Below, one piece after another: positions 9,266 through 46,915 of a DNA stretch of 64,000 nucleotides (position 1 is the stretch's first letter; each line of letters starts with the position of its first letter). Below the pieces are notes generated by a model. That model was not told the origin of the DNA and did no database searches. It saw only the letters and a list, made by a program, of their open reading frames with translations. The position numbers were made by a program, and so were the translations under genes. Source of the DNA: a virus (taxonomy: Duplodnaviria > Caudoviricetes); the IMG/VR virus record IMGVR_UViG_3300028591_000009, positions 42,603 through 106,602 of that record, one strand, 5' to 3'.

Positions 9266-9346
9266 GGGACAGGTGCTGGATTCGAACCAACATTCTACAG
9301 CTGACCTATAGCATTACTGCAGTACTACCATTATACTAACCCATCC
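9266..9346 (-). ncRNA. tRNA-like RNA with enlarged (14-16 nt) anticodon loop
   Basis: Acceptor, D and T arms intact; CTGCAG/CTGTAG stem encloses TAATGCTATAGGTCAG. Confidence 0.65.
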
Positions 9347-9349
9347 TTG

Positions 9350-9448
9350 TGTACACCGAGGAATCGAACCTCTCTCCGTTTCGCGAGGACTCGCTTGGCG
9401 ATGTCCACGAAGAACCGTCCTAACGTCAATTAGACTTCGGTAGTGTAC
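9350..9448 (-). ncRNA. tRNA-like element (acceptor + T arm, non-canonical core)
   Basis: GTACACT/GGTGTAC stem + A; GAGG-TTCGATT-CCTC T arm. Confidence 0.5.
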
Positions 9449-9486
9449 TAACACAGTTACGTGCTAAGCAGAGGCTTTACTGTGCA

Positions 9487-10254
9487 TTATGCGGCCTTAC
9501 GCTCAGGAAGGATTATTCGTCCTTTCTTGCGCTTATGGTCTCTCAGATTTCCAGCAACAAACTTCTCACTCTTAGCGGAAGCCTCGTTTACTTTCTTCTG
9601 AGCGTGTTTGAGAAGTTTAGAATCCTTCTTGAGTTCATTGACTTTATGACCTTCGCCATTTATGTCTTTGATCTCAGCGATCTGCTTCTCCTCAAACTTA
9701 TGTTCACCAGTCTTATACCGACCAGTCAACGGTAACTTGTCAAACATTGAGACAACAAAGTCTCTGATGCGAGTCAAAGCCTCCTCACGTTCTTTCTCCC
9801 AAAGAGGAATATATTCGTCTTTGAAGAGATCGTCTGTAGGACAGGGCTTCGGATGTTTATGTTCCCACCTCTTCATCTTCTCGTCTTCATAAGCCTTCAT
9901 CTTTGCGGCTTTGCCGAGATTCTTCCAAAGCTTCTTCTCGTGGGCGTGTGCATCTGGGAACTCTGATGGATAATCCCACTTCTTAAGTTCTACGGTACCA
10001 TCTTTGTATCTTATCCACTTTTGTCCACGACATCTTTTACGAAGATTCTTTGGTTGAGGATATCCTTCTTTTGGATTTGTCCAACCACCTCCCTTAGTAC
10101 CTTTTACAGTACCCCAGGAATATTTAATATCAATGATATCTTCCTTCTTAGCCTCAGGTATTGTACAGTTTCTAACGGAATGCTGACGACTGTTGGCTGC
10201 AAGGTTCGCTACTTTTCTTCTACGAGCCTTAAGACGTATGCTGCTATGTGCCAT
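9487..10254 (-). CDS. Basic hypothetical protein ending ...ERKAA
   Basis: 255 aa Lys/Arg-rich ORF. Confidence 0.75.
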   Translation of the reverse strand: MAHSSIRLKARRRKVANLAANSRQHSVRNCTIPEAKKEDIIDIKYSWGTVKGTKGGGWTNPKEGYPQPKNLRKRCRGQKWIRYKDGTVELKKWDYPSEFPDAHAHEKKLWKNLGKAAKMKAYEDEKMKRWEHKHPKPCPTDDLFKDEYIPLWEKEREEALTRIRDFVVSMFDKLPLTGRYKTGEHKFEEKQIAEIKDINGEGHKVNELKKDSKLLKHAQKKVNEASAKSEKFVAGNLRDHKRKKGRIILPERKAA

Positions 10255-10283
10255 ATTAGTTTACTTATTAGGTTTACCATATG

Positions 10284-11159
10284 TTATGCAGCCTTTTTAA
10301 CGTTCGTAGAGGCCTTTTCTGAGCCTTTAGAGCTCTTTTTAGCGTTCAGCTGTACAGTTATAGCTTTCTGCTTAGCAATGCGCTCAGCAAGGCTTAAAAC
10401 AGCCTGCGTACTGTTGGCCTTTATCCACGCTCGCTTACCAATTTTAACTTTCGTCTTATTGGTTCCGGCGTTTGGACGGGGCGACGGCTTACGTCTTGCC
10501 AGGAGTTTTCCGTTCTTATTAAACTTCTCAGAACCGTGAGTTCTAATCGGTTTAATCTCTCTTGTAATCTTATCTTTAAGTCTACCTATTTGCATTCTAT
10601 GAATGGCACGAGTAGATCCACGACCTTTGAATGTCGCTGCTTTTGCAGCAGCTTTCTTCTCAGCCGTATTGTTAGTAGGCTTCTTTACCTTCTCTCTATC
10701 TTCCTTAGAGATTACAGACTCCATCTTCTTGGCGTAAGGATATATCTTAGCCTTAGGTGGAGCGATCTCGCGTATCTTCGCGAGTACATCCTGGTTACCG
10801 TCAATAGAGAAAAACGTATCTCCGTGATACTTATAATGAATATTAGCCTTTGCCAGGGCTTCCTTCACCATGGGACCATCGTCACGATTCAACATTATTA
10901 AAATGTTGTATTCCTTAGGAGCGTCGAGCTGTTCTATGAGTTTCTTTACGAGCTCTTCTGTTTTTTCGTCGTCGAACTTCATACGCTTACAACGGCGACG
11001 CAGAGCGTTAATACGGAAACTACGGTACTGTTCCTCACGAGCCTTCTTGCGGGCTTCCGTTTCTTTCATTAGAGTTACTTTACCTGTGGGAACTTTGGAT
11101 GTATTCTTGTTGGTAGCCTGACTCTTCTGAGCAGTTTCTACCTTTGTATTGTTATTCAT
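10284..11159 (-). CDS. Lys-rich hypothetical protein ending ...VKKAA
   Basis: 291 aa ORF. Confidence 0.75.
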   Translation of the reverse strand: MNNNTKVETAQKSQATNKNTSKVPTGKVTLMKETEARKKAREEQYRSFRINALRRRCKRMKFDDEKTEELVKKLIEQLDAPKEYNILIMLNRDDGPMVKEALAKANIHYKYHGDTFFSIDGNQDVLAKIREIAPPKAKIYPYAKKMESVISKEDREKVKKPTNNTAEKKAAAKAATFKGRGSTRAIHRMQIGRLKDKITREIKPIRTHGSEKFNKNGKLLARRKPSPRPNAGTNKTKVKIGKRAWIKANSTQAVLSLAERIAKQKAITVQLNAKKSSKGSEKASTNVKKAA

Positions 11160-11173
11160 ATTGATTATGCTAT

Positions 11174-11353
11174 TTATTTGTTAAAAACTTTGTTAATTAA
11201 ACGAGTAATAAAACTCTTTCTCTTGAAGATATATACTATACCCTCTTCACCAGAATTGAATACAGCCTTAAGGTTGTAATCTTTGCTGTGTTTGTTTAAA
11301 TCGGTGTTTGCCATAAAATGAGGCAGAACCACCTGCTTGTATTTTGGTTTCAT
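11174..11353 (-). CDS. Small hypothetical protein
   Basis: ATG at 11353 follows the recurrent CATTTATCAAAG leader. Confidence 0.55.
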   Translation of the reverse strand: MKPKYKQVVLPHFMANTDLNKHSKDYNLKAVFNSGEEGIVYIFKRKSFITRLINKVFNK

Positions 11354-11402
11354 CTTTGATAAATGAATTTTGTTAAACATGTTAATTATTGGGAAATATT
11401 GC

Positions 11403-11463
11403 GATCAGTGCGGGAACGATCCGCTCGTACGTTTCTTTACACGTACGCACCAGCATTCTGATC
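11403..11463 (-). ncRNA. Three-stem tRNA-like minimal element
   Basis: GATCAG/CTGATC closing stem, CGTACGT/ACGTACG hairpin, GCGG-ATCGTTC-CCGC T-like arm. Confidence 0.4.
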
Positions 11464-11473
11464 CATATGTATT

Positions 11474-12016
11474 TTACGCTGCCATATCAATCTTAAACAT
11501 ATCTGCTGTTGCAGCATCGAGATCGATAGAAGTCTTCGTATTAAAGTCCTCCATTGCAGTATCAAACTTGTTAGCCTTCAACTGGAGATCCTTAATCATA
11601 GAAGCAATCTTTGCAGATGTGAATACCTCATCCTTACCGATATTCTTCAGACCCTTCTGAGCCTTAGTCTTCTGGTCAAGAGTAGGAATCATCTTCAACT
11701 GACAAATAGCCTCCTTCATCTCGCAAGCCATAAAAATACTATAATTGTTCGTCTTCTTAAACGCCTCCTTGTCAAAAGTAGTAATACCCATATTCAAATA
11801 CATAAGCATACCCTTAATATAGACAAGTTTCTCGGCCATCTGTGTGATCTCATTATAGAGATTCTTCACATCATGGGAACGCAGACCAGCCTTAATCTCT
11901 TTCTTGGAGAGAAGGTTCTCTGCCTTAATATAATTCCAATACTTCTTCTTCTTAGAATTAATCTCATCGCGCATAGCGATTATCTTACTTGAATTCAACT
12001 TAATTGATTTCGTCAT
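11474..12016 (-). CDS. Helical hypothetical protein ending ...IDMAA
   Basis: ORF; ATG at 12016 preferred as start. Confidence 0.75.
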   Translation of the reverse strand: MTKSIKLNSSKIIAMRDEINSKKKKYWNYIKAENLLSKKEIKAGLRSHDVKNLYNEITQMAEKLVYIKGMLMYLNMGITTFDKEAFKKTNNYSIFMACEMKEAICQLKMIPTLDQKTKAQKGLKNIGKDEVFTSAKIASMIKDLQLKANKFDTAMEDFNTKTSIDLDAATADMFKIDMAA

Positions 12017-12122
12017 ACTATAAACATTTGATTTAGTTAAACTTCCGTGAATTATGTTGAATTCGAGATTACCTACGTGCCTTATATCCAATCGCTTGTG
12101 TATAAAGCTAAAACTAATCTCC

Positions 12123-12483
12123 GAGGAGAGGGTCCCTCGAGACCCTACTCCTCAAAACACCCTCAAGTGTATAAATGAGATTGTTTTTATTGTTGTTTTT
12201 ACACTTCTCAACTAAGATAAGAATTGTAATAATAAGTGTTTGTAAATCCTTGTCTGCTAATGCCTCGACATATACAGACTAAATCCCTCGAGATTATTCA
12301 TCGGACGTACTTACACTCATTCCTACTATCCCCGTTTCCAGGTTAAGAAATGCTTTACCAGTTGCGTCAGGAAAGTGAAATACGCGATGCTTGTCGGATA
12401 CGTTCACGTTCACGACAACGGGCTCTGCAACAGGTTTGACGACTACGCTTGAGCCTGACTTCCTCCGGTCTCCCTCGAGAGAC
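12123..12483 (-). repeat. Five hairpins with shared loop CCTC(G/A)A (UYGAGG in the minus-strand RNA)
   Basis: Loops at 12135, 12161, 12263, 12286 and 12473, each closed by a different complementary stem. Confidence 0.65.
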
Positions 12484-12881
12484 GCTCCACCGCCTTTATT
12501 GTTGCATACATGCTCGTGTATCTCGAATAAACGAGAAACAACCCAATCATATTCATTTTCGCGTTGTGCTTTCTTAGCAATTTCAACACCAAGTCCTTCT
12601 TCAATGGCAACTGCATTGTCACCTACAGAAAGACTCACAAGGGCATCCCATACGGCTAATGCCCAACTCTCGAACGGCAGTTTTACCTGACATCCGATTA
12701 GTCGATTCCAGAAATCAAAGCTTGTTTCACCAAGAACTACAGTTCCATCGTCACAAACTCTGAAGATTGCGTATGATTTACCCTCTCCGCCGACAGCTTT
12801 TACTTTTTCTGCGACGGTCTCATTTTTCATCAACTGGACCATCAAACCGATAGACCAGTCTGTGAGGGATTTAACCTTCAT
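12294..12881 (-). CDS. Hypothetical protein
   Basis: 195 aa ORF coupled to the upstream gene. Confidence 0.75.
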   Translation of the reverse strand: MKVKSLTDWSIGLMVQLMKNETVAEKVKAVGGEGKSYAIFRVCDDGTVVLGETSFDFWNRLIGCQVKLPFESWALAVWDALVSLSVGDNAVAIEEGLGVEIAKKAQRENEYDWVVSRLFEIHEHVCNNKGGGASLEGDRRKSGSSVVVKPVAEPVVVNVNVSDKHRVFHFPDATGKAFLNLETGIVGMSVSTSDE

Positions 12882-12882
12882 A

Positions 12883-13557
12883 TTACTCGTTAGATGTATG
12901 AACGTTAATCACACTCGTAGCGCCACCATTAAGGATGTCCTTAATCTTGACATTATCCATCTTGGAGTCGTTCCACTCCTTAGAAATCTCATCTGCTTTC
13001 TTATCGTTCTCGACGATAGCGCCCTGGATGTTCTGCTTCATCTTGTTCAGAGCTGACATCAGCATGTCAATGTTCTTGAGTTCAGCGCGGTTAGCGTCGT
13101 TCAGAACCTTGGCAACCTTCTTAGCGTCCAGGAAGAAGTTCTCACCCTCAGCGTGAATAGCAGCCTCGATTGCATCTTCGATGGGCTTCTCGGTTACAAC
13201 TGGATTAACACCGTTGTTGAGCGGGAAGAACAAATCACGAGTGCCATCGGGGCGAGCATTGATAGAGATACCTACCTGCTTAGCCTCACCGATACCTACT
13301 GTATCGAAGCAAGCACCAATGATATCCTTGGTACGGAGCGTGTACTTGCGAGGAGAACGATTGGTAATCAACAGAGCAACACCAGGAGTGTTTGCCTGCT
13401 TCTTGTCGTTCTCAAAGCCTTCCTTGCCGCCGGCCCAGATTTCCTTCATTTCAACTTCAGTGTAAGCTTTGCCTAGCAAAGCACCAATAAGACTAGCAGC
13501 CTGACGAGTGCTAGGGATGACGTTTGAAATATTAACGTCGATAGTTTTTTCTGCCAT
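12883..13557 (-). CDS. Hypothetical protein with C-terminal coiled coil
   Basis: ATG at 13557 (MAEKTID) after an A-rich leader; strong codon bias. Confidence 0.75.
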   Translation of the reverse strand: MAEKTIDVNISNVIPSTRQAASLIGALLGKAYTEVEMKEIWAGGKEGFENDKKQANTPGVALLITNRSPRKYTLRTKDIIGACFDTVGIGEAKQVGISINARPDGTRDLFFPLNNGVNPVVTEKPIEDAIEAAIHAEGENFFLDAKKVAKVLNDANRAELKNIDMLMSALNKMKQNIQGAIVENDKKADEISKEWNDSKMDNVKIKDILNGGATSVINVHTSNE

Positions 13558-13624
13558 TTTTCTTTCCTTTTTGATATCGTGGTTGATCCACCAACGAAAG
13601 ATTAATAATTCCTGCTTCAAGGTG

Positions 13625-15745
13625 CAGGTTTACCTTGTTTTATATAAGTTTTACATCCGGCTCGGTGGCTCTACTAGATGTTGACGTTAGACGGTTATTG
13701 TGATTTCAGTTGCTGTGCTTACGGGAAGCACGCTTCTATTAGAGACTAGTTACACTTCTATATTCCTTAAAATGAAGCTCAACTCATGTAACGGGAATCC
13801 AACGGTAGGATTATCTAAGCCCATCATCTCAATAGGTTCGAAAACTTTGAACGCTGAATATGTGTATCAAACACTAACCCTATTTGTCGGTATGTTTATA
13901 TTTTCGTAAACATTTATTAAATTTATATTAAATCCAATATTCACTTTTTTCGAGTCCGTTGGCAAAATTTTGGAATTATCCAACTAATGTTCATAGGACT
14001 CACCACAAAAATTTTGCATAGTTTCTCTGTTAGTATATTTCCCAAGTACCTTAAGAGTTAACTACACTACGATTGTCATTTAACCACAGATTTTCTCTCC
14101 TGTTGCATGATTTAAGGCTCATACTACTATTACCTTTCCTTGTTATTTCAACGTGCTTGTGTTTACCTACGTAAGGATTACGTTTCTTTATCGAACAATC
14201 TAAGAGCTCCATAACTCTTTTCAAGTACTACGATTTAAAATTCTTCCTAGCGATTCTACGGTACTAAATATTTCTTCTCTTGGATGTGTTTACTCACCCT
14301 CATTATTTATAGTGCACGAATACTGGAGGAATTCCACCTCATACATCGCTTCTTGTCACCCACTTAATGTTCCGCTTCATCGAGTCCTAGTTTCACAAAC
14401 TATCCCAAATGCAACTGGTTGTACGGTTTGCTACTTCTATTTCCTTTACCCCTCCGAGACAGGGAGGTGATTTCACTTCGCGATAAGCTGCCCATCGATT
14501 AAATGTATATGACTTCATGGTCTCTACCGAACACATAGATTTGCTGTCTATGCTCTGATAGGATTCATCTTGTCTATTTGCTTCTCAGGAACGGTTGGCA
14601 CTCGATTTCTGGCGTGAAAGCACTCACAAACATTACAAACGGAGTCTTTCGTTGATATACAACATTAATTTCTCCCAGCCAGGGGACATCAATTTTTGTT
14701 AAACATGTTAATTATCTCTTTTGTTTTCTACTACGTATTATCTTCGTTAGAATCTTCTCCCGATAAAGTATAACGGTATATTGTATACAGTTCGTCATCT
14801 AACTATCATCTTACTTTCGAAGGAAGCGATCTCTCTCTATACTGGAATGTATAGGCTTCGAATCGACCACCTAGATAAGAAATTTTTGGCTATCTAGTAA
14901 CCATCTAAAACGCATTTCCTCATCCTTCAAACATAATACTCGCTTACCAGTACTTGTTATCAATTGAAATAGAGTTTCTCCGCGCTCTTCATCCGCGTAC
15001 CATAGGCTCCAGAACCATATGGATTAAGTGGCGCATCCACTTGTAGTCATTTCCTCTTATATCCCGCACAAACGACTAAAGCCTGGCGGTCATCTTCATC
15101 ATATTTTCCTCTGTACCCCATCCCTGGCACCCCTTCAACGGAGTTGTGCACGAATCGAACGGCAAGGATTTCTCCAAGGACCGTAGTTACGGTACGGCGC
15201 AGACAGTCACACCTTCTGCTAGGCGAATATACTCAGATATTTTTCATCCCTTCATACACGTTGTGGAGACGTGGAACACTAGACTACAGCTTAAAGTTGA
15301 TACATCATTGAGTGTTTTGGCTTCAAACTCAATGTTGCGACTCCTGTTTCGTTATGCTATCCTTATGTATCATCAGATAGTATGTCGAATACGGTTCAGT
15401 TTTGCCCATCATTCGGGACTTATGCGTCTTCCTTACTAATACCCCACACTTCAAAGAGTCTGGCAAGAGCATAAAGGACTCTGCTGGTATATATTAGTGT
15501 TAGGGTCTGATACATACGCTCACCCTACTTACTATAAGCGATTCGATTATGTAGTACGCATAAAACTTATAGCATTTCATCCTACCTTTTGGATTTCTCA
15601 CCATTTGAGATGGCTAACATATTCTCGGATCAAGTTGTACTATTCGCATTCTAAGGTTGATGAGACCTACTCCGTAGACGAATGCTGACGTGTGCCCATC
15701 GGGCGGGGAATGTATGAATCCTCATACATCCCCCATGCACCGGAG
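13625..15745 (-). ncRNA. Candidate very large non-coding RNA / ORF-free structured tract
   Basis: No minus-strand ORF of 60 aa or more over 2.1 kb between co-oriented genes; several hairpins; strand inferred from flanking genes. Confidence 0.45.
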
Positions 15746-15748
15746 TGA

Positions 15749-16231
15749 CTAACGCTTGTAGACTACCTCACCGTCGACTGTGAGGCAAATGGACGCTTTA
15801 GGAGGTCCAACAGTGTCTGGGGTGTACTCCTCGCGAACCCCACGTACTTTGTTGTTAACAATACTATCAGGAATTATAGCTGGTGTGCTCAACCCCTGAC
15901 GTTTTATTGTGGCACGAGCAGATGTACGCTTCTTCTTGTACACTAGGTTCTTTACTCTCGGAGCTTGAGATGTGTCCTTAACAACCACTATTTCTAGTGG
16001 GACATACTCTTTCTCCGTTTTGTTCTGTCTCTCAACTATAGGTTGAGTGATAGATGGCAACGGCAATGCTCGATAATCGGGCAGCGTTGCAGCGTTCAAT
16101 GTCTGATGCTTGCGCATAGACATCTCATTGTTCTCTACCTCCGCTAATGACCACCCTGCTAGGGCAAACAATAGCGAACAAATAATTGTTGTAACTAGTT
16201 TCATACCTTTGATAGATTTCGAAACTATCAC
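15749..16231 (-). CDS. Membrane-anchored or secreted hypothetical protein (TAG stop)
   Basis: N-terminal hydrophobic segment. Confidence 0.65.
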   Translation of the reverse strand: MIVSKSIKGMKLVTTIICSLLFALAGWSLAEVENNEMSMRKHQTLNAATLPDYRALPLPSITQPIVERQNKTEKEYVPLEIVVVKDTSQAPRVKNLVYKKKRTSARATIKRQGLSTPAIIPDSIVNNKVRGVREEYTPDTVGPPKASICLTVDGEVVYKR

Positions 16232-16236
16232 ATCAC

Positions 16237-17628
16237 TTAACCCTTCTTCTCCTCAGGAACAGGAACTTCAACGAGATTGCTCTCCTTGTAGTTGATAGAC
16301 TGAGACAGAGGATCGGTGAACATGTTGACAATAATGCCAGCACGCTGCTGAACATTCTTCAGCAATGCCTCATTAGTCTCATCATCAAGCTCCTTACCCT
16401 TGAACTCAGGATAGTAAGTGTCAATGATATTACCAACCAGACGGTGAGCAAGTTTGTACTCCTCAGAGTCAGTCTTGTCAGACTTGTAGTTGTCAATCAA
16501 AGCGTCTACTACCTCGAATGAAGGATTGGTAGTTTCTGTGATAATCAGGTTCAACTCCTCGATGGCGGTCTCGTTTGCACGAATAGCAGTTTCAGTTGCT
16601 ACCTTTGCAGCGCCCTTCTCGTTCTCAAGATGCTTCTTCTGCTCCTTGATAACTTCGTTGCACTCAGCTATTCTACTGTTACATGACCACAGTAAGAGAA
16701 TGCGAACGATGTCAGCCACGTACTGATCGTCAATGGTATTGTCCTTCTCAGGAACGGCACTGCGACGATAGAGGCAGAACGACGAAATGGGACTTCCAGT
16801 CTCAGCGGAACGCTTGCGAAGAAAGTAAGCAGTGCCAGTCAATGCAAATGGGCAAGGACCAACAATCTCTGCTATCTCATCCAGCAACTTCTGGCGAGAC
16901 TTATCCTTAACTTCGTTAACGGCAGCCGTCTTGTCCTCAGTAGCATTGGCCTGGATGGTCAAATAGCCACGATAGAACTTGATGGTACGTTGTACACGTG
17001 CGTCTGGGCGATCAATACCGTCAGAGATAGGCTTTACGAGCATGGCTGTGAGAGATGCCTTTAACTGCTCAGGAGTCTTTATCTCCGCAGGATTGCTAAC
17101 TGCCTTGGCGACAGATTCCATTTCCTTCTTTTTGCTTTTGATGGTCTTTTCAGACACGTCCTTCTTGTCAATTGTAACAACACGTGTCTCAGCTGGAAGA
17201 AGGCCAACAACACCTGCCTGTTTGAGCTGTTCCTCTGTAGGAGCAGGAAGCATCTTGAACTCAGGAAGCTTAATTCCGCGCTCAATTGCCATACCCATCA
17301 AGGCGTTGTAGTTGTTCTCGTTAGCTGTGATGATAAGACCAGCAACACTGTTGCCAGATGCTATCTCAGTAATAGCGACATCGAGGATTGATACTTGTGC
17401 AAGCATGGTGAGACCATCGATAGTGCACTGAGAAGGCTTCTCGGTATTGGTCATCAAGAATGCACGTTCGTTTTGTAGTGCGCCAATATAAGCGACTTTA
17501 TCGCTCTGGCTCATACCCTTTGTGTTAGGGTTATTGTTTACAGGAAACTTCACTGTAGTATTATTTTCAGGAGCTCCCTGTGCTTCTGCTGCTGCTGCAG
17601 CTGCAGAAGTCTTGTTGTTTTTTGCCAT
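16237..17628 (-). CDS. Hypothetical protein, 463 aa
   Basis: Long ORF with TTATCAAAATG leader. Confidence 0.8.
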   Translation of the reverse strand: MAKNNKTSAAAAAAEAQGAPENNTTVKFPVNNNPNTKGMSQSDKVAYIGALQNERAFLMTNTEKPSQCTIDGLTMLAQVSILDVAITEIASGNSVAGLIITANENNYNALMGMAIERGIKLPEFKMLPAPTEEQLKQAGVVGLLPAETRVVTIDKKDVSEKTIKSKKKEMESVAKAVSNPAEIKTPEQLKASLTAMLVKPISDGIDRPDARVQRTIKFYRGYLTIQANATEDKTAAVNEVKDKSRQKLLDEIAEIVGPCPFALTGTAYFLRKRSAETGSPISSFCLYRRSAVPEKDNTIDDQYVADIVRILLLWSCNSRIAECNEVIKEQKKHLENEKGAAKVATETAIRANETAIEELNLIITETTNPSFEVVDALIDNYKSDKTDSEEYKLAHRLVGNIIDTYYPEFKGKELDDETNEALLKNVQQRAGIIVNMFTDPLSQSINYKESNLVEVPVPEEKKG

Positions 17629-17711
17629 TTTGATAACGGTTTTTTAAATTAATTACTTGTGGTTGGTTAGTCCACTTAACTATAACCATAGGAACTGATT
17701 GTAGTAGACTT

Positions 17712-18125
17712 TCAAGAATCGTCTACAATTTCTACACTGTTTGGCGGGTTTGGCAAAGCGTGTAGGTATAGTCTATGAGTCACCCCACAGACATCACTTA
17801 AAGTCTGGTTAGGCTCAACCATATCAGGCGTATAATCCTGACTCACAAGGCTTGAAGTTACCTTCACTGGTGTTGTATAGTCTACATACTCAGGAATACA
17901 TACGAATGTTCCCTGTGTAGCCAACAACCCTTGTGTGGGGTACGCCTGGTTGAGCATGACCTGACTTTGTTCCTTCTTTTCGATTGCCTTATGAGCAATC
18001 GTTCCTACTGTGAAAGCTAATGTATAGCTTACAAATAGGGCCCAGAATACTTTGTTGCTATTGTTGTATCTTGCGATACCCAATATAAACAGTGTTCCGA
18101 GAATGAACAATAAAGCTACTGTCAT
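17712..18125 (-). CDS. Two-TM membrane protein coupled to the sigma gene (anti-sigma candidate)
   Basis: Two N-terminal hydrophobic helices; ATGA overlap with sigma stop. Confidence 0.55.
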   Translation of the reverse strand: MTVALLFILGTLFILGIARYNNSNKVFWALFVSYTLAFTVGTIAHKAIEKKEQSQVMLNQAYPTQGLLATQGTFVCIPEYVDYTTPVKVTSSLVSQDYTPDMVEPNQTLSDVCGVTHRLYLHALPNPPNSVEIVDDS

Positions 18126-18685
18126 GATTGTAATTTTAAACGTTGTCTTAACTTACGTCTAGTCCTGGAGAGCGTGGATTTTATAGTTCCTACTGGTACT
18201 CTAGGATTAAACGTCTTACTAATCTCTTCTACGGTTAAATTATCTACATAAAATCTTTCAAAGATCTTACGAGTGACCTCTGGAAGTTTCTCAAACTCAC
18301 GAAGTAGTTCCTTATACGTCAGATGATTGACTAAGTCATCTTCAGCACAAGCCTGAATATTGGAGTTTAGTCGGTCCTCCTTTATATCAGCTACTTGTTT
18401 GTTCTTTATACTACGCAAATAATCAATTGCAGTTCGATTAGTCAATATTCGCAGCCAACCCCCAAAGGAGTCGTATGCTACAAATTTCGAGAGTTTATCA
18501 TGCACTTTAAGAAAGACAATATTTGCCACTTCTTTAGACTCGTCCATATCTTTTAGATACTGGAACAAAAGACTCTCTACAAAGCCTTTATACTTGTAGT
18601 AAAGTGCATTAAAAGCAAGCTCATCGCCTGCTTGCGCTTTTTTGATTAAGTCAACTTCAGTTGGGGTGATTCTAGGATTCTTCAT
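18122..18685 (-). CDS. ECF-type (sigma-70 group 4) RNA polymerase sigma factor
   Basis: LIKKAQAGDELAFNALY, region 2 SFGGWLRILTNRTAIDYLR, region 4 LTVEEIS...VPVGTIKSTLSRTRRKLR. Confidence 0.9.
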   Translation of the reverse strand: MKNPRITPTEVDLIKKAQAGDELAFNALYYKYKGFVESLLFQYLKDMDESKEVANIVFLKVHDKLSKFVAYDSFGGWLRILTNRTAIDYLRSIKNKQVADIKEDRLNSNIQACAEDDLVNHLTYKELLREFEKLPEVTRKIFERFYVDNLTVEEISKTFNPRVPVGTIKSTLSRTRRKLRQRLKLQS

Positions 18686-18787
18686 AATCAAAAACAATTT
18701 ACTCGGTTTATTAAGGTGTCACTCCTGTACGCGGAACCGAAACGCTTAGTGGGCAGTGGGAATACCAATCCCGTTAGGTTTTCTGCC

Positions 18788-19760: not shown

Positions 19761-19762
19761 AG

Positions 19763-19836
19763 TGATTCCTGAACGATTCGAACGTTCGACCGACAGATTA
19801 GAAATCTGTTGCTCTATCCAACTGAGCTAAGGAACC
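19763..19836 (-). tRNA. tRNA-Arg(UCU)
   Basis: Full cloverleaf; anticodon arm ACAGA-TTTCTAA-TCTGT. Confidence 0.93.
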
Positions 19837-19900
19837 TTTTGAGGCGTTTGTTTTTATAGTGGTGTCAAGCGAGCCTCTGTAAGCATGTCCACAACATTGG

Positions 19901-19946
19901 AATGAGTGCAGGCTTCGAACCTGCCATAGTTCCGTTATTACTCATT
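19901..19946 (-). ncRNA. Mini tRNA-like element (acceptor + T arm only)
   Basis: AATGAGT/ACTCATT stem stacked on GCAGG-TTCGAAG-CCTGC with a 15 nt linker. Confidence 0.6.
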
Positions 19947-20262
19947 CACCGTTCACAGGCACTTAGGTAGCCTGTACACCGACTTCACGCTGCCTCCTGG
20001 AGACCCGTGTAGTCTGCAATGTTATAATTGCCAGTTAATTTTTATATCGAAGCGCTTAACGTCTTACTTTCCGCTGCCGTCAAAACCATTCAAGCCCAGA
20101 TTAAAAGCTCCCGCCTCTATCCTCTGTACACCTTCTTCAGTGCCAGCGAGTACACAATTCAGGGAGCTTGGAGTGTTAATCAATAATACACGTGGACCTG
20201 GGCGGAATCGAACCGCCGTCCGAACAGCATATCCTAGGACACGCTAAGATTTCACTTGTGAA
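19947..20262 (-). ncRNA. ssrA: Circularly permuted (two-piece) tmRNA
   Basis: T arm + CAGGTCC-A (ends 20193) lies upstream of GGGCTTGAATGGTTTTGAC (starts 20097); G3-U70 pair; P2 pairings; tag frame 20032-19985 = GNYNIADYTGLQEAA*; outer ends approximate. Confidence 0.88.
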
Positions 20263-34865: not shown

Positions 34866-34959
34866 TATCCCACATACAGCCGATACGTGGGAGGCTGAGA
34901 TTCAGGTGGCCACCTGGACCCACGTGAAATTTCCATAATAAAGTTAAAATTAGTTGGTA

Positions 34960-35011
34960 TCCTATCGCATAGAGCCTTATCAAGAGCGGGGAGCGTTACC
35001 TCGGGTAGGAA
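34960..35011 (+). ncRNA. Mini tRNA-like element
   Basis: TCCTATC/GGTAGGA stem + CGGGG-AGCGTTA-CCTCG arm. Confidence 0.45.
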
Positions 35012-35062
35012 CTACATTGAAATTTTTTCATAATAATATCTTAAGGGTGGCGTTAAGCCCCA

Positions 35063-35127
35063 GGTGGTTTTGGAACGGCTGGAACAATGATACAGGATGC
35101 CGAGGGGTTCGATTCCCCTACCAACCA
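35063..35127 (+). ncRNA. tRNA-like element lacking canonical D and anticodon arms
   Basis: AGGGG-TTCGATT-CCCCT T arm, GGTGGT/ACCAACC stem; abuts the suppressor tRNA. Confidence 0.5.
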
Positions 35128-35128
35128 C

Positions 35129-35203
35129 TGTCCTATGGTGTAGTGGTAGCACAGGAGGCTCTAACCCTCCAGGTCCGGGTTCGATTCGATGGTAGGACGA
35201 CCA
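35129..35203 (+). tRNA. Amber suppressor tRNA-Gln(CUA) with encoded CCA
   Basis: TGTCCTATGGTGTAGTGGTAGCAC tRNA-Gln-type body; GGAGG-CTCTAAC-CCTCC with anticodon CTA at 35161-35163. Confidence 0.9.
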
Positions 35204-35219
35204 ATAAACAAAATAATAC

Positions 35220-37747: not shown

Positions 37748-37752
37748 TAACT

Positions 37753-38757
37753 ATGAATTTAAATCATAATACAAACAAACAAACAGGCGATCAGCTTACA
37801 GCAGCAGAATGGAATAATCTTGCTGCTGATGTAAATGAATTGGGAGCTGGTGGTGCAGGAAATAACGACACACATGTCTATTTTGATAGCACAAACAAAC
37901 ACAACCTTAACCTTGTTACTACGGACTCCGATCAATACATCGACGAGAATAATAAGGTAAAGGGCGGCAAGATTAACATCGAACCGTATAGCGATCTTCA
38001 AATCAAACCTGGTGACGACATTACATTGTATTCTCATCACAGAGAAGATCCAGAAGAACTGGCTGTAAAGGTTCTTAATGGTGCAGAGGTTTCTGCTACA
38101 GATCAGGCTGAGATCGATGAATACCCTGTAGATCTTCAATTAAACGCATCAAACGTAATTCTTACAACCAAAGACAAGGCTATTACTATTGCCGAAAAGA
38201 ATAAGGCTCGTGCAGCCGAAGGAAAAGACAATACTGCAGATAAAGCCAACATTATGAATGTAGAAGTTAAGACTGGTACAAAAGCTAAGAAGGCTACTGC
38301 ATCTAATGGTCAATACGGTTATTTGAAGGTTCGCGCAAACGCTATCGATCTTCGTTGTGAAGACCACGGTGGCATTGCTATTCAACCTAAAGGTTATGAT
38401 AGTGATGGCAATATGAACAAGATTAAGTTCGAACATGGCGGTGGCGACGGCCTCGAGTTTGGTACATTCAACACCGAAAAGAGTTCATTGTTCACAGACG
38501 AATATCGTTTCAACAAGAACGGCGAGATTTATCTTGCTACTCGTCAGACCGAAGCTTCTGGTAAGACAGATGATACCGGTATCTTTGACAACACTCCTAG
38601 CGGCAAGACAGCTACAAACGCACTGAAGTATGTAAAGCAAGCCGACGATTTCTATGATGTTATTGACAGCAACGATCCACATTGCACATGGGGTGATATC
38701 GTAACATATATTTCTTGGGCTAAAGCAAACAACCAGGGACCCTGGGCAAATCTTTAA
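37753..38757 (+). CDS. Putative tail/structural protein
   Basis: 334 aa, beta-rich, KQTGDQLTAAEWN N-terminus; no TAG. Confidence 0.7.
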   Translation: MNLNHNTNKQTGDQLTAAEWNNLAADVNELGAGGAGNNDTHVYFDSTNKHNLNLVTTDSDQYIDENNKVKGGKINIEPYSDLQIKPGDDITLYSHHREDPEELAVKVLNGAEVSATDQAEIDEYPVDLQLNASNVILTTKDKAITIAEKNKARAAEGKDNTADKANIMNVEVKTGTKAKKATASNGQYGYLKVRANAIDLRCEDHGGIAIQPKGYDSDGNMNKIKFEHGGGDGLEFGTFNTEKSSLFTDEYRFNKNGEIYLATRQTEASGKTDDTGIFDNTPSGKTATNALKYVKQADDFYDVIDSNDPHCTWGDIVTYISWAKANNQGPWANL

Positions 38758-38763
38758 TAACTT

Positions 38764-38961
38764 ATGATACACGTAAACAATCATAATATAGTTGGTGTTT
38801 ATAGTGGTAATAGGGATATTGTAAAAGTATACAGCGGACTACGCTTAGTCTGGAGTAAGATAATAGACGTTATAACAGAAACATTAAGTTGTTACGCCAA
38901 TGGGTATTGGATAGATGAAAACCCTTGGACTGACGAAACACCTTGGTTTAAAGAACAATAA
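38764..38961 (+). CDS. Small tail-associated protein
   Basis: IVKVYSGLRLVW...GYWIDENPWTD pattern. Confidence 0.6.
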   Translation: MIHVNNHNIVGVYSGNRDIVKVYSGLRLVWSKIIDVITETLSCYANGYWIDENPWTDETPWFKEQ

Positions 38962-38963
38962 AT

Positions 38964-41900
38964 ATGGATTTATATACAGAAAAAATCAATGAATTTACCG
39001 ATTGGGTTTCGGGAGAGAACAGTCTAACTAACGGTAATGATACAAATAATCTTCCGGTATCCGGCGCAAGAATCAGAGAACTTCTTCAAGATCATTTGAA
39101 AGAACCAATATATCTATGGAGAGACACTACTGAGAATTTATACAGGATTTTCAGTAGTGCCGATGCATGGAGAATTTGGGATTCTGATAGAACAAGATAT
39201 GCTGATCTAGAACTTGCAAGCTTCGTAGCTCCTTCGGAATATGGCATAGAGGTAACGTTTCCAGAAAACGGTACTATACTATACGCTCGTGAAGGTGTTC
39301 ATGATGAGAATACTGTCGTATCTTATAGTTGGAATGTTGTTGATGGTAAAGGCAACGAACTTGACGAAAACATGTATGTAACATACAGTATAGTAGAGAA
39401 CGGTGCTTATGTACCTACAACAAAAACTCCATCTGAAAAAAATGTAAGAGAAGATTTATATGATTATCTTTCTACTGGTTTGAATACAGTAGAGATTTCG
39501 TTTAAAGGCGCAGATAGTGGAGCTGAAACAAAGAAGACAATTACAGTTCACGTACTTAAACTAAATGTTAGTACAGACTTTAATTATACAACAGTTAGAG
39601 AAAATTTAAAACCTCTTAACTTTTCATTGTATGCAGACAGAAACGTATAGGGTCCTTTGAGTTTTAAAACTCGCAGATACTATTACGGTTCTGGTAAATT
39701 CAACGAAGCTGCACAAGAATAGTATGAAAATACATTTAATATTAGAACTGCGGACGAAAACAACTTGACTCCTAGTGCAGAATATCAAGAATCTGGTTCT
39801 GAAGATGCTACGCGATTAAAAGCTGGTTTACATGCGGTATAGGTTATTGGTAGAATGATCCTAAATAATAATCAGTTTAATAGCAATCTTTTATACTATT
39901 TGTTTGGCGTAGGTTTTCAACCAGGCAGCGAGACAATGTATCATGGTATAGCGGCAGAGTGTAACTTTAACGGCAAAATAGATTTTATTGGTCCTACAGA
40001 GTTTATGCTCGAGGCCACGCAATATGAATAGTTTACTCTAAATTGGGGTTATATTAGTTATATTGGTGGAATGAATAACAGCATTTCGTGGTATATGCGA
40101 GACGTGAACAATGAGGATCCTGAGGATGTAAATGAAACATTCATTACAACTGTAGAATGTTCGTCAAACGTAGCTGCTAGTCCTCTTAAATACATGCCCG
40201 TAGAATATACCGATTCTGGAAGAAGTACATTTCTTGTAGCAAAAATTTCTGGAACGGATATAATTGAACTTCCGATATATATCAAAGAAAGCGAACTTGG
40301 TATTAGTGAAACTGGAGGTGCCGATTTAAAACTCAAACTTTCTGCATACGGAAGACTCAACGAAAATACAAACGTTTCTACATGGGAATATAATACATAT
40401 TCTACAACGTTTACCAATGTAAAATGGAATCCTGCAAGCGGATGGTATGATAATAGTTTACGATTATCTGGAATCGATTCTACAGCAGTAATCAATTACA
40501 ACCCGTTTGGAGATATAGATGCTACAAACAAAGGTGTTACTGTAGAGGTTGAGTTTGAATCTGAATATGTTTCTTCTACAGACGAGGAGCTTATTAGACT
40601 AGGTAGTTCGTTAAATAGCGAACCGCACATTAGTATATTTGCTAACAAAGCTTAGTTGTTTATACAAGGATCTCCTATTATTACTACTAACTATAAAGCT
40701 AACGAACGCGTAAAACTTGCGTTTATTGTTGAGCCTAGAAATAATGTAAGCGAAGAGATTAAGAACGTAATCTTTATTGTAAACAATGGTATATGCGAAA
40801 GAGCAGCTGGTTGGAAAGATTATGAACCTGCGGTATTTTCCGCAAATACTGGAAATATTACTATAGGAGGGTGTAATTCTGGAATACGTGTATATAATAT
40901 AAGATGTTATACCAAAGCTATTACGATTTTAAACGCTTATAATAATTTTGTATACGATAGTGATGACAAGGCGTCTATTGTAGGACGAAATAATATTTAC
41001 GCTAACAACGAAATAAATCTTAAGAAATGTCAAGATAAAATCGATGTAATTATTTTAAAAGGTCCTTTGAATAAAGTATTAAGCCGCAATACTACAAAAG
41101 ATGGTTCTAACAGCGAATGTGATATACAACGCATATGTGCTAAAGATCGCTCCAAAAACTTTACTGTAACTCACGGACGTATTCGTAAACATGGTCAGTC
41201 TACGTTGAACTATCCTCTTACTTCTTATAAGTTGTGGACATGGTCTTCTGTAGATGAAGTAAGACCTAGCTTAATAATTGATGCTTCTGAAGATATCCCG
41301 TTCTCTAAGAATAGATACCAGATGAAGAACGATGCAATACCTTCAAACAAGTTTGTATTGCAAGCCAACTATGCAGACTCATCTGGTACACACAATGGTG
41401 GTTTCTTAAGACTTATTTAGGATATCTGGTATAATAGCCAGATTGATGGAGAATATAAGCTTAGGACATAGCCGTAGTTGTTTAGCTCAAATCAGACAAT
41501 CTCTGTATAGACCGGAGATGAGATGACTACTGCTGAATCTAATCTCTTTAGAGGTATGAATGCGCAGGGTAAATAGTGGGGAGATTACTTTGGACTTACT
41601 CCGTTCCCGTATGTATTAAGAACGGCGCCAGATTCATTCCCATGTTTAGTATTCTACCAAAACGACGATGCTGGAGATACAGCCGCACACTTCTTAGGAC
41701 AATATGTATTTATGGATGATAAGAAGTCTGATTATACATATGGACAGAGAAGTATATACAAGGTAGACAACGTGCAGTCTGGTACCAACAATGCCAACGA
41801 CCCGTTCTGTGTTAAGAGAGATCCTAAGACGGGAGAATCTATTTGGGATGAAAAGAAGGGTACTAAGATTTGGGACAACGATAAGGTTCTTCGTATTGAA

Positions 41901-44900
41901 TGTCTTTCTGTAAACAGCACGCTTGCAGACTTCCGTGGTACTACTGCTGATAATAGTGGTCGTCAATTCGATAATGTTATACTTGGTTCAAATGAAGATA
42001 ATACAAGTATTGGTTGGGAAGAAGACTTTGAATTGGTATACCCAGAGAAAGAGGAAATTACCACATCTAAACAATTTGACGCCAATAAGTTTGTAGCTAC
42101 TGTACAACCATTTACGGAATGGTTGCGTTGGATCATTGGTACTTATCATAACCAAGCGCAGTTTGAAGCTACTGCAGCACAACACCTAGACCTTTATAAG
42201 ATGGCTGCTTATTACATCTTTGTATTGAGATTTGGTCTTGTGGACTCATTGGAACGTAATGCTCAGATTAAGACGTACGATGGTAAACACTTCCATTATG
42301 AGCCTTGGGATATGGATATCGCATTAGGTAACCGAAACACTGGCGGTATTGCATTTAATCCTCCTATCGACCGTAATACGATGATGGATGCTACTACAGG
42401 AGCTATTTCTGGTAGATCTGTTATTGATACAAACAATGACGATGTTCCCGATACTACAGTATCTAACTGGCTGTTCGATGCTCTTGAAGCATGGCCATAT
42501 TGGATGAATACTATTGTTCCGAAGGTAGCTGATGCTATGTATAAGCAGGGTCTTACGTATACAAACGTAATTAACATGCTTGATGGACAGTATCAGGATG
42601 CCTGGTGCGAAACAATCTATAATGAGACTGGTAACTTCAAATATGTTGTAAACCGTCAAAACGTAGATAGCAATGGCAATATTCTATCTGGATATGATGA
42701 TAGCTGGTTGTCATGGTTACAAGGAGCTCGTACAACTCACCGTCACTGGTGGTTGAAGACCTCTATGGACTACTACGATGCTAAGTGGGGTGTAGGCGAA
42801 TTTATGGAGAAGAACATGTACATCGGTTGTGAAATGCACAATGTACAAGGATCTATAAACATTGTTCCTACTTCTTCTACATATTTCATGTTTGAACGTG
42901 AAGCAACTAAGTTTGGTCCATTTGCGGCAACTGTAGACGATCCTTTAGAGTTTGATGTATCTTCTATTAACTCTGGTGCGAAGGTTCCGTTTAAAATGTA
43001 CGGCGCCAACTTTATCAAAGAGATTGATATTAGCGACGTAGCAAGCGGCCTTCAAGTATTTTCTATTGCCAACGCATTCTCATCTGAAGTAGGACCTGTG
43101 ATAACCAAAGTAAATATTGGAGTTAAGGTTACTTAGCAAGATGCAAATACATATACAGGCCAAGAAAATAATAAAGAAATTTAGATTGCTGCCGGTAGTT
43201 CATTGAATGCTATAGAAGAATTAAATATTCGTGGACAACGTAGTTCAGGTCTACTCGGTACTGGTCGTATACAAGGTCTTGATTTTATAGCTAACACAAA
43301 GACTATTAAGAAGATCTATGCTATGGGTGCCGGTATGAATACACTCAATAGCTGTATAGGTACAGACTTTGATACTCTTGAACTTCCAGATACCATTTCT
43401 TCTATTACATTTAATAGTACTACTTGGGATCCAAATAAATTATCGTTCTGGCATACTACATCTGGTGGTTATGTAACTAGAACTTACACTGATTATAAAG
43501 TAGACGAACAAGGCGAGGTAGTTTATGAGAACGGTGAACCTGTAATGGAGGAGTACACTGTACAGGAAATGAATCCTGCTACATATACAAAGTATGATCT
43601 CGACGATGCTCAAATAGGAGTATCTATTCCTAGAGGATTGTTAGCGGTTCGTATGACAGGTACTACTGGTAAAAATGCTTGTGCTAGACAGTTTGTTGTA
43701 GACTGGATCGCTTCTATTATCAAATGGGGTACCGAAGATTGGGATAACCAAGAAAACGGTGCAGATGAATACGCATCCCTCGATGAATATTTAACACATC
43801 TATTCAATGAGAGAACTCTTTCTGTAGAGAATATATATTGGAACAATTCAGCAATTCCTGGTTTGAGTTATGAACAACTTACTTGGATTGCTAAATTTAA
43901 TAATATAGATTATTCTCAACAATATACAACTCATCCAAACATAACTAATTTTTCTAGAGGTTATGTAGTACTTACAGATACTAATGCTCTTACTGGTATT
44001 CAAACATCTTATTTGTCTACATGGTTTGGTGAAGGTGTATTTGTATTAAACAGTAGTGGTCTTGTAATCGATCAATAGTTAGAATATACAACCATATCTG
44101 TAGGTCCTGCCGCATATGTAGAAAATAACGAAATATATATAAAAGAAGGTACATCTGCAAGAATACAGGCGACGAAGTTTAATCTTAGACCATCATTATC
44201 TTCTACAGAATTTTAGCTTTCTGCTCCAGATTCACAGCTATCTGCATCATCTTATAGAGGAACTAGTATTGTTTCTAATAGGATAGGCGTAGGAGATGAA
44301 GTTATTTATTATCTAAAAGCCGATCCATATGTTACTGGATAGGATTATGATGTTAGACTTGCAAGTGGTTCTGGTAGTGTTATTATCCATGTAAAAGCTT
44401 TAGATTATCCAGAACAAATATTCTTAAGCATACAAGGTAATAAAAAGTTAGATGATAGTGGTTCGAATACAGATTTCTACAAATATGATAAAGGCTTTGA
44501 TACATTTGTATTAGGAAACTAGGCTGGTCCATTCTTAGTTGGTGTACAATTTAAAGAAGGCGATAGATGGGTGAATACTCCATCTAACGATACAATTAAA
44601 CCTTCGTATGCTAAATTTAAAGTATATAAAAATGATGTACTTTGTTCTAGATTTGAGTACGGAATAAATTATACAGACTTTATACAAGCAGGACTAACGA
44701 CAACTACTTTTGTAGATCAAGCAGACACATCTCTATCTTACATTACTGGATATAAACCTACATCAGACATATACAAATATTTTATCCCACTGAATGTAGA
44801 AAGAACTGTTCAGCAAGAACCGTTAAAATATAGAGTTGATTGTGAGATTAAACTTGGTGGTATGATTACTACGCTTAGCGCCAACATTATACTAATTAAG

Positions 44901-45911
44901 GATTTTGTTGTTGCGCCAGAAGGAAATCCATTGTGGGGTCTTATAAATAACTCGTATGTTCAACAAAAAGGATCTAATTACACACGAGGCGGATTCTATA
45001 GAAGTATTACTGATTTTATTGTAGGCGATATAAGTGTTGACGGATAGTATAATTTAAATGGTACTTGGACAACAGTAGGATCTAGTATACAAAACACAAT
45101 ATCAAGCGGAAGTGGTACTGCTACTAGTATGTTTAAGTACTTACCTGGTATACACGGTATTAAACTTGATGGATCTACAATGGCTTCTACTGCAGAAGGT
45201 ATAACCAATATCGATTTGTCTAACGTTCAAGATCTTGTTACGTTCTCTATATAGGATTGTACAAATCTTACTGGTACTATAGATCTATCTTCATTTGCTA
45301 ACCTTGAAGAAGTTGATGCTAGCGGAACTACAGTTAATGTATTGATTCCTACACGATCAAAAATAACTAAATATGAATTAGGAGCTCCAACATCAATCAG
45401 CATTATTAATCCTACTGTATTATAGCCTAGTGGAGTTAAAGTAGATTCATGGGGTAATATTAATTCATTGGTATTAAAAAATATACCTGGCAATAATACT
45501 TATGCAATGTTTGAGCAAATTATGCAAACATACATGTTTGGAGGAGGTCTTATTTGGGGTAAACGCATAAACATTGAAGGGGAAACAGGAGCTGACGCTT
45601 TTGTAGATGATACTAACGAGTGGTGTGTGTCGACATATATTGATATACAAGGTATTTCTTCAATATCAGTAAATGCACCTCATTATACAGGTATACTATA
45701 TTTAGATTCACATTATAAAAAAATTGAGAGAGAAAGATTCTTTGGTAGCGATGATAGTAATGTAGAAACCACAATTACACCTCCGCAAGGAACATATTAT
45801 ATGATATGGGGAATTTTATCTAATACAAGCACGCCATCCGTATACTCCAAGAATGTATGTTTTAAAAATGCTAATACAGGACGCACTTTGTTTGAATATA
45901 AGCCCTCTTAA
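38964..45911 (+). CDS. Giant 2315 aa protein (code 15): LamG-like, CotH-kinase-like and LRR-like regions
   Basis: One frame broken only by ~19 TAG; GQSTLNYP, LQANYADSS..HN, GQYVFMDDK, GLVDSLERN and PWDMDIALG motifs. Confidence 0.8.
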
Positions 45912-45939
45912 TTTATACAATAAAGATATTTAATTAGTC

Positions 45940-46839
45940 ATGACATCGTTAAGAATTGAATAGGGATCTGCTGTAGAAAACGTTTCAGAATCTCTTATAA
46001 AGAAATTGTATGATATAGCTGTTGAAGTACCGCTGCCTGGTGCAGGAGAAGAAGATGCCGCATATCTTTCTGGTCACATAGCAGTAGAGTATACTTATAA
46101 GTCATATGTTGATTATTTGGCAGGTACTATTGGAGAAGGTTCTTCTGGAGTTGTAACTACAATTAGACAAAACGCAGGTGGAAGATTTGGAGATTTAAGA
46201 ATAGATGTAACACGTGGATATTGGATTTTGTTTGAAGATGAAGCTGTAGAAAATGTATTAAAAACAATGTTGCATAAGTCTGGATTAGTTAGTAGTGATT
46301 TAGATACAATTACCTCATTAACTAGAAGCAGCGGATTTAAAAATAATACTTCCATCACTTCTTTAAACGATCTTTAGTATTTAACTTATTGTACTGTTAT
46401 AGATGAAGAAACGTTTTGGGGCGCAAGTAACTGTGTTACTATGAAACTTCCTCCTATGGTAAGAAGGATTGAAGATTTAAGAAATATGTCAAAAGTTGAA
46501 GGATTAAGAATTCCATCTACATGCACCGGAAATACAGATGGCAATTTGTTTATTAGAATGTTTGACAGCTTGAATCTTTTGGTTGTGGATGGCACTATAG
46601 ACGAACTTAACATGGATGAAGAAAGTGGAAGGTTTGCTGCTCCTACTAATATAGTAATAAACGGCCTTGTAAATAAAATTGTAGTACAAGGAAAAAATTA
46701 TACTACGTGGGGAGGAACAATTTGGGTAGATGATGTTGCTACATATAAAGCTAAAAGCGGTTTTTCTTCATACAAGAGTAATTTGAGTCCTATATCTAGT
46801 ATGCCAGCTGCATTATAGAATGCTGTTGCACAATTATAA
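45940..46839 (+). CDS. BspA/LRR_5-like protein, 299 aa (code 15)
   Basis: FKNNTSITSLNDLQYL...IDEETF...MKLPP.VRRI; 3 in-frame TAG. Confidence 0.65.
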
Positions 46840-46873
46840 TCAATAACACAACCTCAAGTGTCTAAAATGAGGA

Positions 46874-46915
46874 TGCGTAGAATGGTTAATCTTGGTTCGA
46901 TTCCAAGCTGCGCAC
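46874..46915 (+). ncRNA. Mini tRNA-like element (acceptor + T arm only)
   Basis: TGCGTAG-AATGGTTAAT-CTTGG-TTCGATT-CCAAG-CTGCGCA. Confidence 0.6.

Follow-up and report, generated by a model that had tools for sequence, protein, structure and literature searches.

Gene organisation of the window and location of the elements

The subject of this report is a set of seven intergenic elements resembling reduced transfer RNAs (tRNAs), named El1 to El7 here, in a 64,000-nucleotide (nt) stretch of virus DNA. This stretch, referred to below as the window, comprises bases 42603-106602 of the 106,602-bp virus record IMGVR_UViG_3300028591_000009, which carries direct terminal repeats. Judging from sequence matches, its source is a crAss-like gut phage of Suoliviridae-like type, the window being the right 64 kb of 106.6 kb. 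The DNA polymerase region matches crAss-like phages, namely cr131_1 (71%) and also a Bohxovirus of the Suoliviridae, and the guess of Crassvirales made in a first-pass annotation of the window was right. Genes are encoded on the minus strand as far as about 32.9 kb and on the plus strand from there on. All seven elements listed in the first-pass annotation were found, with coordinates that were identical or differed by 1-2 nt. They are intergenic, lie 10-64 nt from the flanking open reading frames (ORFs), and are all on the local coding strand, as had been proposed.

Structures of the seven elements

The predicted folds indicate that the seven elements are tRNA-derived mimics of the top half of a tRNA, consisting of a coaxial acceptor-stem/T-arm helix with no working anticodon arm. 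The acceptor and T stems have 7+5 bp in El1, El5 and El7 and 8+5 bp in El4, and are near-complete in El2, El3 and El6. A usable 7-nt anticodon loop was found in 0/7 elements, and El3 to El7 have no anticodon arm. The structural description in the first-pass annotation was right, except that its statement on lost or rebuilt D and anticodon arms goes too far for El1, in which a D arm and the stem of the anticodon arm are both retained. In the descriptions that follow, z denotes the folding energy relative to shuffled sequences.

El7 and El4 are clean acceptor/T-arm minihelices, each with a single 5' loop that contains GG and resembles a stemless D loop. El7 (46874-46915, plus strand; z = -3.2) is a 41-nt minihelix followed by a discriminator C, with the sequence TGCGTAG-AATGGTTAAT-CTTGG-TTCGATT-CCAAG-CTGCGCA-C, in which a 7-bp acceptor, the loop AATGGTTAAT, a 5-bp T stem and a TTCGATT loop can be recognised; it sits in a 139-nt gap separating two late genes. 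El4 (19900-19947, minus strand; 48 nt; z = -4.0) has an 8-bp acceptor, a 15-nt loop with GG and the T arm GCAGG-TTCGAAG-CCTGC. It is located directly 3' of the coding piece of a permuted, two-piece transfer-messenger RNA (tmRNA) with the tag GNYNIADYTGLQEAA (19985..20243, minus strand; Rfam RF04321, 64.5 bits; ARAGORN tmRNA*), the acceptor of which is GGGCTTG/CAGGTCC with a G3:U70 pair.

Two elements precede the amber-suppressor tRNA on the plus strand. The minihelix El5 (34960-35011; 52 nt) combines the 7-bp acceptor TCCTATC/GGTAGGA and the T stem CGGGG/CCTCG with the non-canonical loop AGCGTTA; its fold energy is no better than that of shuffles (z = -0.3), and its homologues nevertheless covary perfectly. 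El6 (35063-35128; 66 nt; z = -0.65) is a degenerate tRNA-like element, GGTGGTT...AGGGG-TTCGATT-CCCCT-ACCAACC-A, with 1-2 mismatches in the acceptor, and it ends 1-2 nt ahead of the suppressor tRNA (anticodon CTA; 35129..35203; ARAGORN; Rfam tRNA, 34.4 bits), which heads the TAG-recoded late genes and is followed by the dUTPase gene.

The remaining three elements are on the minus strand. El3 (11403-11463; 61 nt; z = -2.95) lies 10 nt past one gene and 22 nt ahead of the next, and is made up of a 6-bp acceptor-like stem, a TGG-containing loop, a variable hairpin and a 4-bp T-like arm with the loop ATCGTTC. El2 (9350-9448; 99 nt; z = -2.7) is cloverleaf-like, with a 6-7-bp acceptor, the T arm GGTTCGATTCC, and two arms that are not anticodon arms, their loops being of 4 and 3 nt and not the 7 nt of an anticodon loop. 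El1 (9267-9345; 80 nt), an aberrant tRNA-like element, follows 3 nt downstream of El2, its 3' end being 27 nt ahead of the PolB start codon. Acceptor, D and T arms are present, the anticodon stem is closed by a loop of 14 nt, and the element matches the Rfam tRNA family at 42 bits, above the gathering threshold of 29 bits, with a 16-nt insertion versus 9 nt. By default, with its intron option off, ARAGORN did not call El1.

The T loop is canonical in El1, El2, El4, El6 and El7 and non-canonical in El3 and El5. In the loops ATCGTTC and AGCGTTA the usual first T and fifth A are exchanged to A and T, an exchange that recurs in two unrelated families (El3 and El5).

A covariance model (R1) built from six El7-type sequences found the homologues of El7, missed El4, and recovered only the T arms of the other elements. 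The seven elements thus constitute a structural class rather than one sequence family.

Conservation and covariation in related phages

For each of the seven elements, homologues occupy the corresponding position in related phages, and the base changes in the acceptor and T stems compensate one another.

Six homologues of El3 have 99% of cells paired, with 8/17 pairs changed on both sides, and slid controls were 15-42% paired; at this position genome G008 has a TTCGATG loop. In the El4 and El5 families MAFFT misplaced the stems, and pairs were counted from a hand parse instead. Among nine El4 homologues, 71/72 acceptor cells and 44/45 T-stem cells are paired (115/117 in total), with several pair types; among six El5 homologues, the figures are 42/42 and 30/30 (72/72), again with several pair types. 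The loops of the El5 family differ, being the canonical TTCGAAT in G001, ATCGTTC in three genomes and AGCGTTA in two.

At the El7 locus, which is upstream of the phrog_16490 gene, relatives keep the 41-nt form with differing stems. The acceptors TGCGTAG, TGCATAG, TACACAG and TGCGTCG and the T stems CTTGG/CCAAG, GTAGG/CCTAC, GTGGG/CCCGC, GTTGG/CCGAC and CTCGG/CCGAG were observed. Some relatives carry, additionally or instead, an aberrant tRNA of 87-108 nt, in which the centre is non-canonical and the acceptor, D and T arms are normal. The possibility that these are intron-bearing tRNAs was considered and rejected, the intron mode of ARAGORN having given inconsistent 'introns' and anticodons.

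In the slot upstream of PolB occupied by El1 and El2, relatives carry tRNA-like elements 80-125 nt long. Their centres bear no relation to one another from genome to genome, and all of these elements stop just ahead of a common leader, ...CTAGTATTAACTAAAGAACC...GAGTC-ATG. In homologues of El2 (G012 and G001), acceptor changes compensate (GTACAC / ACACAC / GCACAC), as do those between the T stems GAGG/CCTC and GTGG/CCAC. The sequence of El6 is kept before the suppressor tRNA in five genomes (relatives including G001, G007, G008 and G012), with an insert of 17-50 nt. The leader between El1 and the PolB start codon in the window (9239-9265, minus strand) reads CTAGTATTAACTAAAGAACCTATGAGTC and is kept in all relatives.

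A wider family of El7-type minihelices

A family pattern derived from the El7 loops, AATGGTTWAY followed by NNNGG-TTCGAYTCC, was scanned against viral contigs and matched at least 114 stretches. These represent at least 57 distinct sequences of El7 type, most of which have 6-7/7 acceptor pairs in register, the remainder being shifted by one base. Among the matches listed, nearly all are intergenic, none was called by ARAGORN, and a few contigs have 3-6 copies. Two unrelated viral contigs, L184 (27 kb) and L187 (33.6 kb), contain arrays of 3-6 El7-type minihelices within a few kilobases.

Sixty-five El7-type sequences were placed in an alignment (A3), in which standard pairs occupied 98.2% of cells as against 57.9% after shuffling, and 281 cells were changed on both sides as against 78. 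The covariation score was 0.764, compared with 0.136 for shuffled sequences and at most 0.13 for slid controls. In this alignment the loops are fixed by the search pattern and the sequences were fitted to a model, and the signal is carried by the stems, which the pattern left free. About 24 cells are G-U wobbles on the sense strand, corresponding to A-C mismatches on the opposite strand, and since the G-U pairs occur there an RNA structure on the sense strand is favoured.

Census of T-arm motifs and chance controls

The T-arm motif GGTTCRANYCC was counted in ten genomes (that of the window's phage and nine complete relatives; 1.03 Mb) and in shuffled genomes, with the antisense strand as a further control, as the first-pass annotation had envisaged. 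There were 85 copies, compared with 3.9 in the shuffles. ARAGORN-called tRNAs accounted for 24 of these and tmRNA spans for 10; the other 51 were uncalled by ARAGORN, and of these 48 lie in the sense direction, 2 are antisense and 1 is ambiguous. Where an uncalled element has an acceptor stem, its length is between 33 and 148 nt. The motif is present in El1, El2, El4, El6 and El7; it is absent from El3 and El5 in the window, yet present in their homologues.

In the ten genomes the mimics and the real tRNAs have in common a 3' trailer, N-C-(A/T)-A, with C at position +2 in 23/24 tRNAs and 34/44 mimics, against a genome background of 19% C. Because this trailer is common to both, the sequences suggest that mimics and real tRNAs undergo the same 3' maturation. 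The phage tRNA genes in these genomes do not encode CCA; A-C-(A/T)-A comes next, and C74 is nearly invariant.

Interchangeability with tRNAs and spacing

The position that follows the tmRNA coding piece was compared among relatives. A permuted tmRNA is present in 15/18 complete relatives (loci L082-L096), and in 15/15 of those that bear it a minihelix, a longer degenerate tRNA or a true tRNA is found 1-7 nt past the same hairpin after the tag stop. The true tRNAs are tRNA-Gln (G008) and tRNA-Met (G006 and G007). The constant presence of some tRNA-like element at this place would be explained by a need for an RNase P substrate of whatever kind, through which the coding piece would acquire its 3' end. 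Similarly, in a Bohxovirus two genuine tRNA-Ser genes (anticodons TGA and GCT) occupy the position upstream of PolB; no canonical tRNA was found in this slot among relatives down to 67% PolB identity.

The elements leave little room for promoters of their own because they sit tight against the flanking genes, at distances of 10-40 nt, and promoter and terminator scans around El7 gave nothing above chance. If the elements are substrates, messenger RNAs (mRNAs) must be cut.

Directly before El5, at 34870-34957 on the plus strand, a conserved hairpin, GATACGTGGGAGGCTGAGATTCAGGTGGCCACCTGGACCCACGTG, is followed by a conserved motif, AAAGTTAAAATTAGTTGG, in several relatives. This could be a terminator-promoter pair or another RNA element; a search for the motif found one weak second copy.

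Proposed interpretation as RNA processing signals

The reading that we favour, and hold with moderate confidence, is that the elements are tRNA-derived signals like the t-elements of plant mitochondria, which would be cut by host RNase P and 3' tRNA-processing enzymes. The elements would be transcribed within polycistronic phage RNAs. Host RNase P would cut at their 5' edge, host RNase Z or exonucleases, then the CCA-adding enzyme, would act at their 3' edge, and the cuts at both edges would split the transcript into defined units. El4 would then probably define the 3' terminus of the tmRNA's coding piece, El5 and El6 would free the amber-suppressor tRNA, and El1, El2, El3 and El7 would give PolB and other downstream genes short, defined leaders. 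A search among the phage-encoded proteins found no CCA-adding enzyme, RNase Z-type metallo-beta-lactamase, RtcB or SmpB; the phage being without these, host enzymes would have to act. Artificial hairpins consisting of the acceptor and T stem-loop alone are cleaved by bacterial RNase P, and the GG-containing remnant of the D loop that is usual in the mimics can form the tRNA elbow.

Punctuation of phage mRNA through host RNase P had already been suggested in the first-pass annotation, and it gains comparative support from the interchangeability with tRNAs, from the covariation of stems around free centres, and from the spacing and the trailer. From the structures, conservation, covariation, strand, position and tRNA interchangeability observed here we infer the cleavage itself and the enzymes involved.

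Several points weigh against the reading. El3 and El5 have no canonical T loop, and El5 and El6 are thermodynamically undistinctive. In the El7-type family the first acceptor pair is mostly U-A, and RNase P substrates typically have G-C. Positional equivalence with tRNAs would also follow from plain descent from tRNA genes, and the C conserved at position 74 may be a sign that the mini-RNA, once released, is important in addition to the cut. Finally, the sequence before El5 could be a promoter, and a processing signal at the start of a transcript has little to separate.

If the elements are processing signals, then the tRNA punctuation logic of mitochondria and of a few eukaryotic RNAs also organises expression in abundant gut phages, and the release of the two-piece tmRNA and the amber-suppressor tRNA from operon transcripts would be accounted for. 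They would, moreover, constitute an uncatalogued RNA family, represented about 5 times per genome here and found in many viral contigs; its members are overlooked by gene callers or wrongly labelled as odd tRNAs. In practice, phage annotation could be improved, and the elements could be used as compact, naturally occurring processing modules in multi-gene or guide-RNA constructs for Bacteroidales, or as naturally minimal substrates of RNase P, RNase Z and the CCA-adding enzyme.

Comparison with known RNAs

The t-elements of plant mitochondria, reportedly described by Hanic-Joyce in 1990, provide the closest functional parallel. They have non-canonical tRNA-like folds with the same T-arm motif, GGTTCRANYCC, and are cut by RNase P and RNase Z at mRNA ends (PMC1920247). 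They are used alongside true tRNAs as cleavage signals, and the released element gains a non-encoded C or CCA (PMC1920247, Forner et al. 2007). The phage elements are similar in that an acceptor-like stem and this T arm occur in a non-canonical fold, on the sense strand and beside the ends of coding regions. They differ in belonging to a bacterial virus, in numbering 5 or more per genome and in being as short as 41 nt; plant t-elements are organellar, are few per genome and have a function backed by mapped RNA ends. The parallel is a functional analogy and not one of shared descent.

With canonical tRNA genes (RF00005) the elements share the acceptor stem, the T arm, an intergenic position on the coding strand and the 3' trailer N-C-W-A. 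They depart from them in the missing anticodon loop, in central parts that are deleted or replaced, and in that none was called by ARAGORN under default settings. The 41-nt El7-type homologues score 23.7 bits on RF00005, against a threshold of 29 bits. An Rfam search (cmscan) that covered the entire window, at E up to 10, gave no tRNA match at El2 to El7 and no other family there, except a weak YrlA match over the span of El4. That candidate, the Y RNA-like family RF02553 (23 bits, E = 2), covers 19784-19948, that is El4 and a tRNA-Arg jointly, and was rejected as a member, the threshold being 69 bits.

The tRNA-like domain of tmRNA likewise combines an acceptor, a T arm and a stemless, GG-containing D-loop analogue, and the AATGGTT of El7 resembles AATGGTTTTGAC of the phage tmRNA. 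Unlike that domain, which is formed from two distant strands, the element is self-closing; it has no reading frame attached, and no G3:U70. The third acceptor pair is C3-G70 in El7 and A-U in El4, and is G-U in 0/64 family members.

Eukaryotic examples of non-decoding modules are also available for comparison. The mascRNA / MEN-beta and MHV68 tRNA-like RNAs are modules in longer transcripts that recruit RNase P and RNase Z and thereby make the ends of neighbouring RNAs; they are CCA-tailed, do not decode, and keep a cloverleaf-like shape. The mascRNA-menRNA family had no Rfam match in the window at E up to 10. Among phages, the species 1 and 2 RNAs of T4 are small, stable RNAs of 120-140 nt which are co-transcribed with the phage tRNAs from inside the tRNA cluster. 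Literature searches found no description of such elements in phages. A survey of viral contigs names unspecified 'tRNA or tRNA-like' candidate RNAs, without the anatomy or the reading given here (PMC10690425).

Alternative explanations

The elements may instead be genes for stable, CCA-tailed mini-RNAs acting in trans as decoys for, or competitors of, factors that bind the acceptor/T-arm half, with the cutting of mRNA as a by-product; we regard this as possible and somewhat improbable. Their targets might be acceptor-end-targeting defence toxins, SmpB, EF-Tu, modification enzymes or the CCA-adding enzyme. Retention of the N-C-(A/T)-A trailer as in real tRNAs suggests that a matured 3' end matters, and the elbow-forming loops (AATGGTTAAT and TTCGATT) are kept while the stems vary; the likeness of the El7 5' loop to the D-loop analogue of the phage's own tmRNA and the 3-6 copies on contigs L184 and L187 point in the same direction. 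The acceptors, however, are highly diverse, with G3:U70 found in none of the 64 sequences, so that no single synthetase or sequence-specific partner is indicated; no partner protein is encoded close by, and in the slot following the tmRNA a true tRNA can take the element's place. The majority of known defences that target tRNAs cleave the anticodon loop, the part that is missing from these elements. The evidence as a whole neither supports nor refutes the anticodon-less decoys suggested in the first-pass annotation. In its boldest version, which we put forward tentatively and think unlikely, the minihelices are a new class of phage small RNA, namely released, CCA-tailed top halves of tRNAs which would act in trans by titrating acceptor-end-modifying toxins, SmpB or EF-Tu. 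If so, the minimal tRNA half of minihelix-world origin models would be a working molecule in present-day viruses.

A different role is conceivable for the long elements (El1, El2 and the 87-134-nt forms in relatives), in which a tRNA frame would serve as a scaffold that stabilises and releases a functional central small regulatory RNA, much as in tmRNA. Close relatives have unrelated inserts upstream of PolB, an insert is missing altogether from the 41-50-nt forms, and we consider this explanation decidedly unlikely, even though the internal motifs TTCTTCGTG...GAAACGGAGAG of El2 are kept across G000, G001 and G012, the aberrant tRNAs at the El7 locus have a common covarying hairpin, GGCRC...GYGTT, and the insert end ggtgcagttaat is common to other subfamilies.

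That the elements are decaying, functionless tRNA pseudogenes at former tRNA gene sites would fit the real tRNAs present in the same slots in some relatives, the acceptor mismatches of El6 and the loss of a canonical T loop in El3 and El5. Decay is difficult to reconcile with compensating double changes that hold 98-100% pairing in both stems across many lineages, with the recurrence of the 41-nt form across viral contigs of various kinds (at least 57 distinct sequences), with the absence of canonical tRNAs from the slot before PolB in relatives whose PolB is as little as 67% identical, or with a strand bias of 48 to 2, and we judge it very improbable.

Elements acting at the level of DNA (recombination or attachment sites, or origin hairpins) or as transcription terminators seem hardly credible: the elements do lie at module borders, and tRNA genes are common integration targets, but the sense-strand G-U wobbles would be A-C mismatches on the other strand, both acceptor strands are present, beyond what a 3' tRNA fragment would supply, the phage has direct terminal repeats with no integrase seen, no T run comes after the elements, and no terminator-like site was found around El7.

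Other features of the window

When TAG is read as glutamine, fragments on the plus strand merge into long genes such as 38964-45911 and 50047-52842, the first of which is then a single ORF of 2315 amino acids with 19 in-frame TAGs. Between 33000 and 64000 on the plus strand the late genes are readable solely if TAG is a sense codon, and the minus-strand genes follow the standard code. Relatives G003, G005, G008 and G013 have a different amber-suppressor tRNA (anticodon CTA) before dUTPase; its D arm is abnormal, a canonical T arm is missing, and ARAGORN did not call it.

In addition to the suppressor, ARAGORN and Rfam detected tRNA-Leu, tRNA-Arg, tRNA-Glu and tRNA-Met in the window, together with the permuted tmRNA. 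In its Rfam alignment the tRNA-Leu(TAA) at 3481-3564 (minus strand) has two mismatched pairs in the acceptor stem. Close to the El7 locus in one relative, a group I intron was identified at L027:2182-2423 on the plus strand (Rfam, 64.7 bits).

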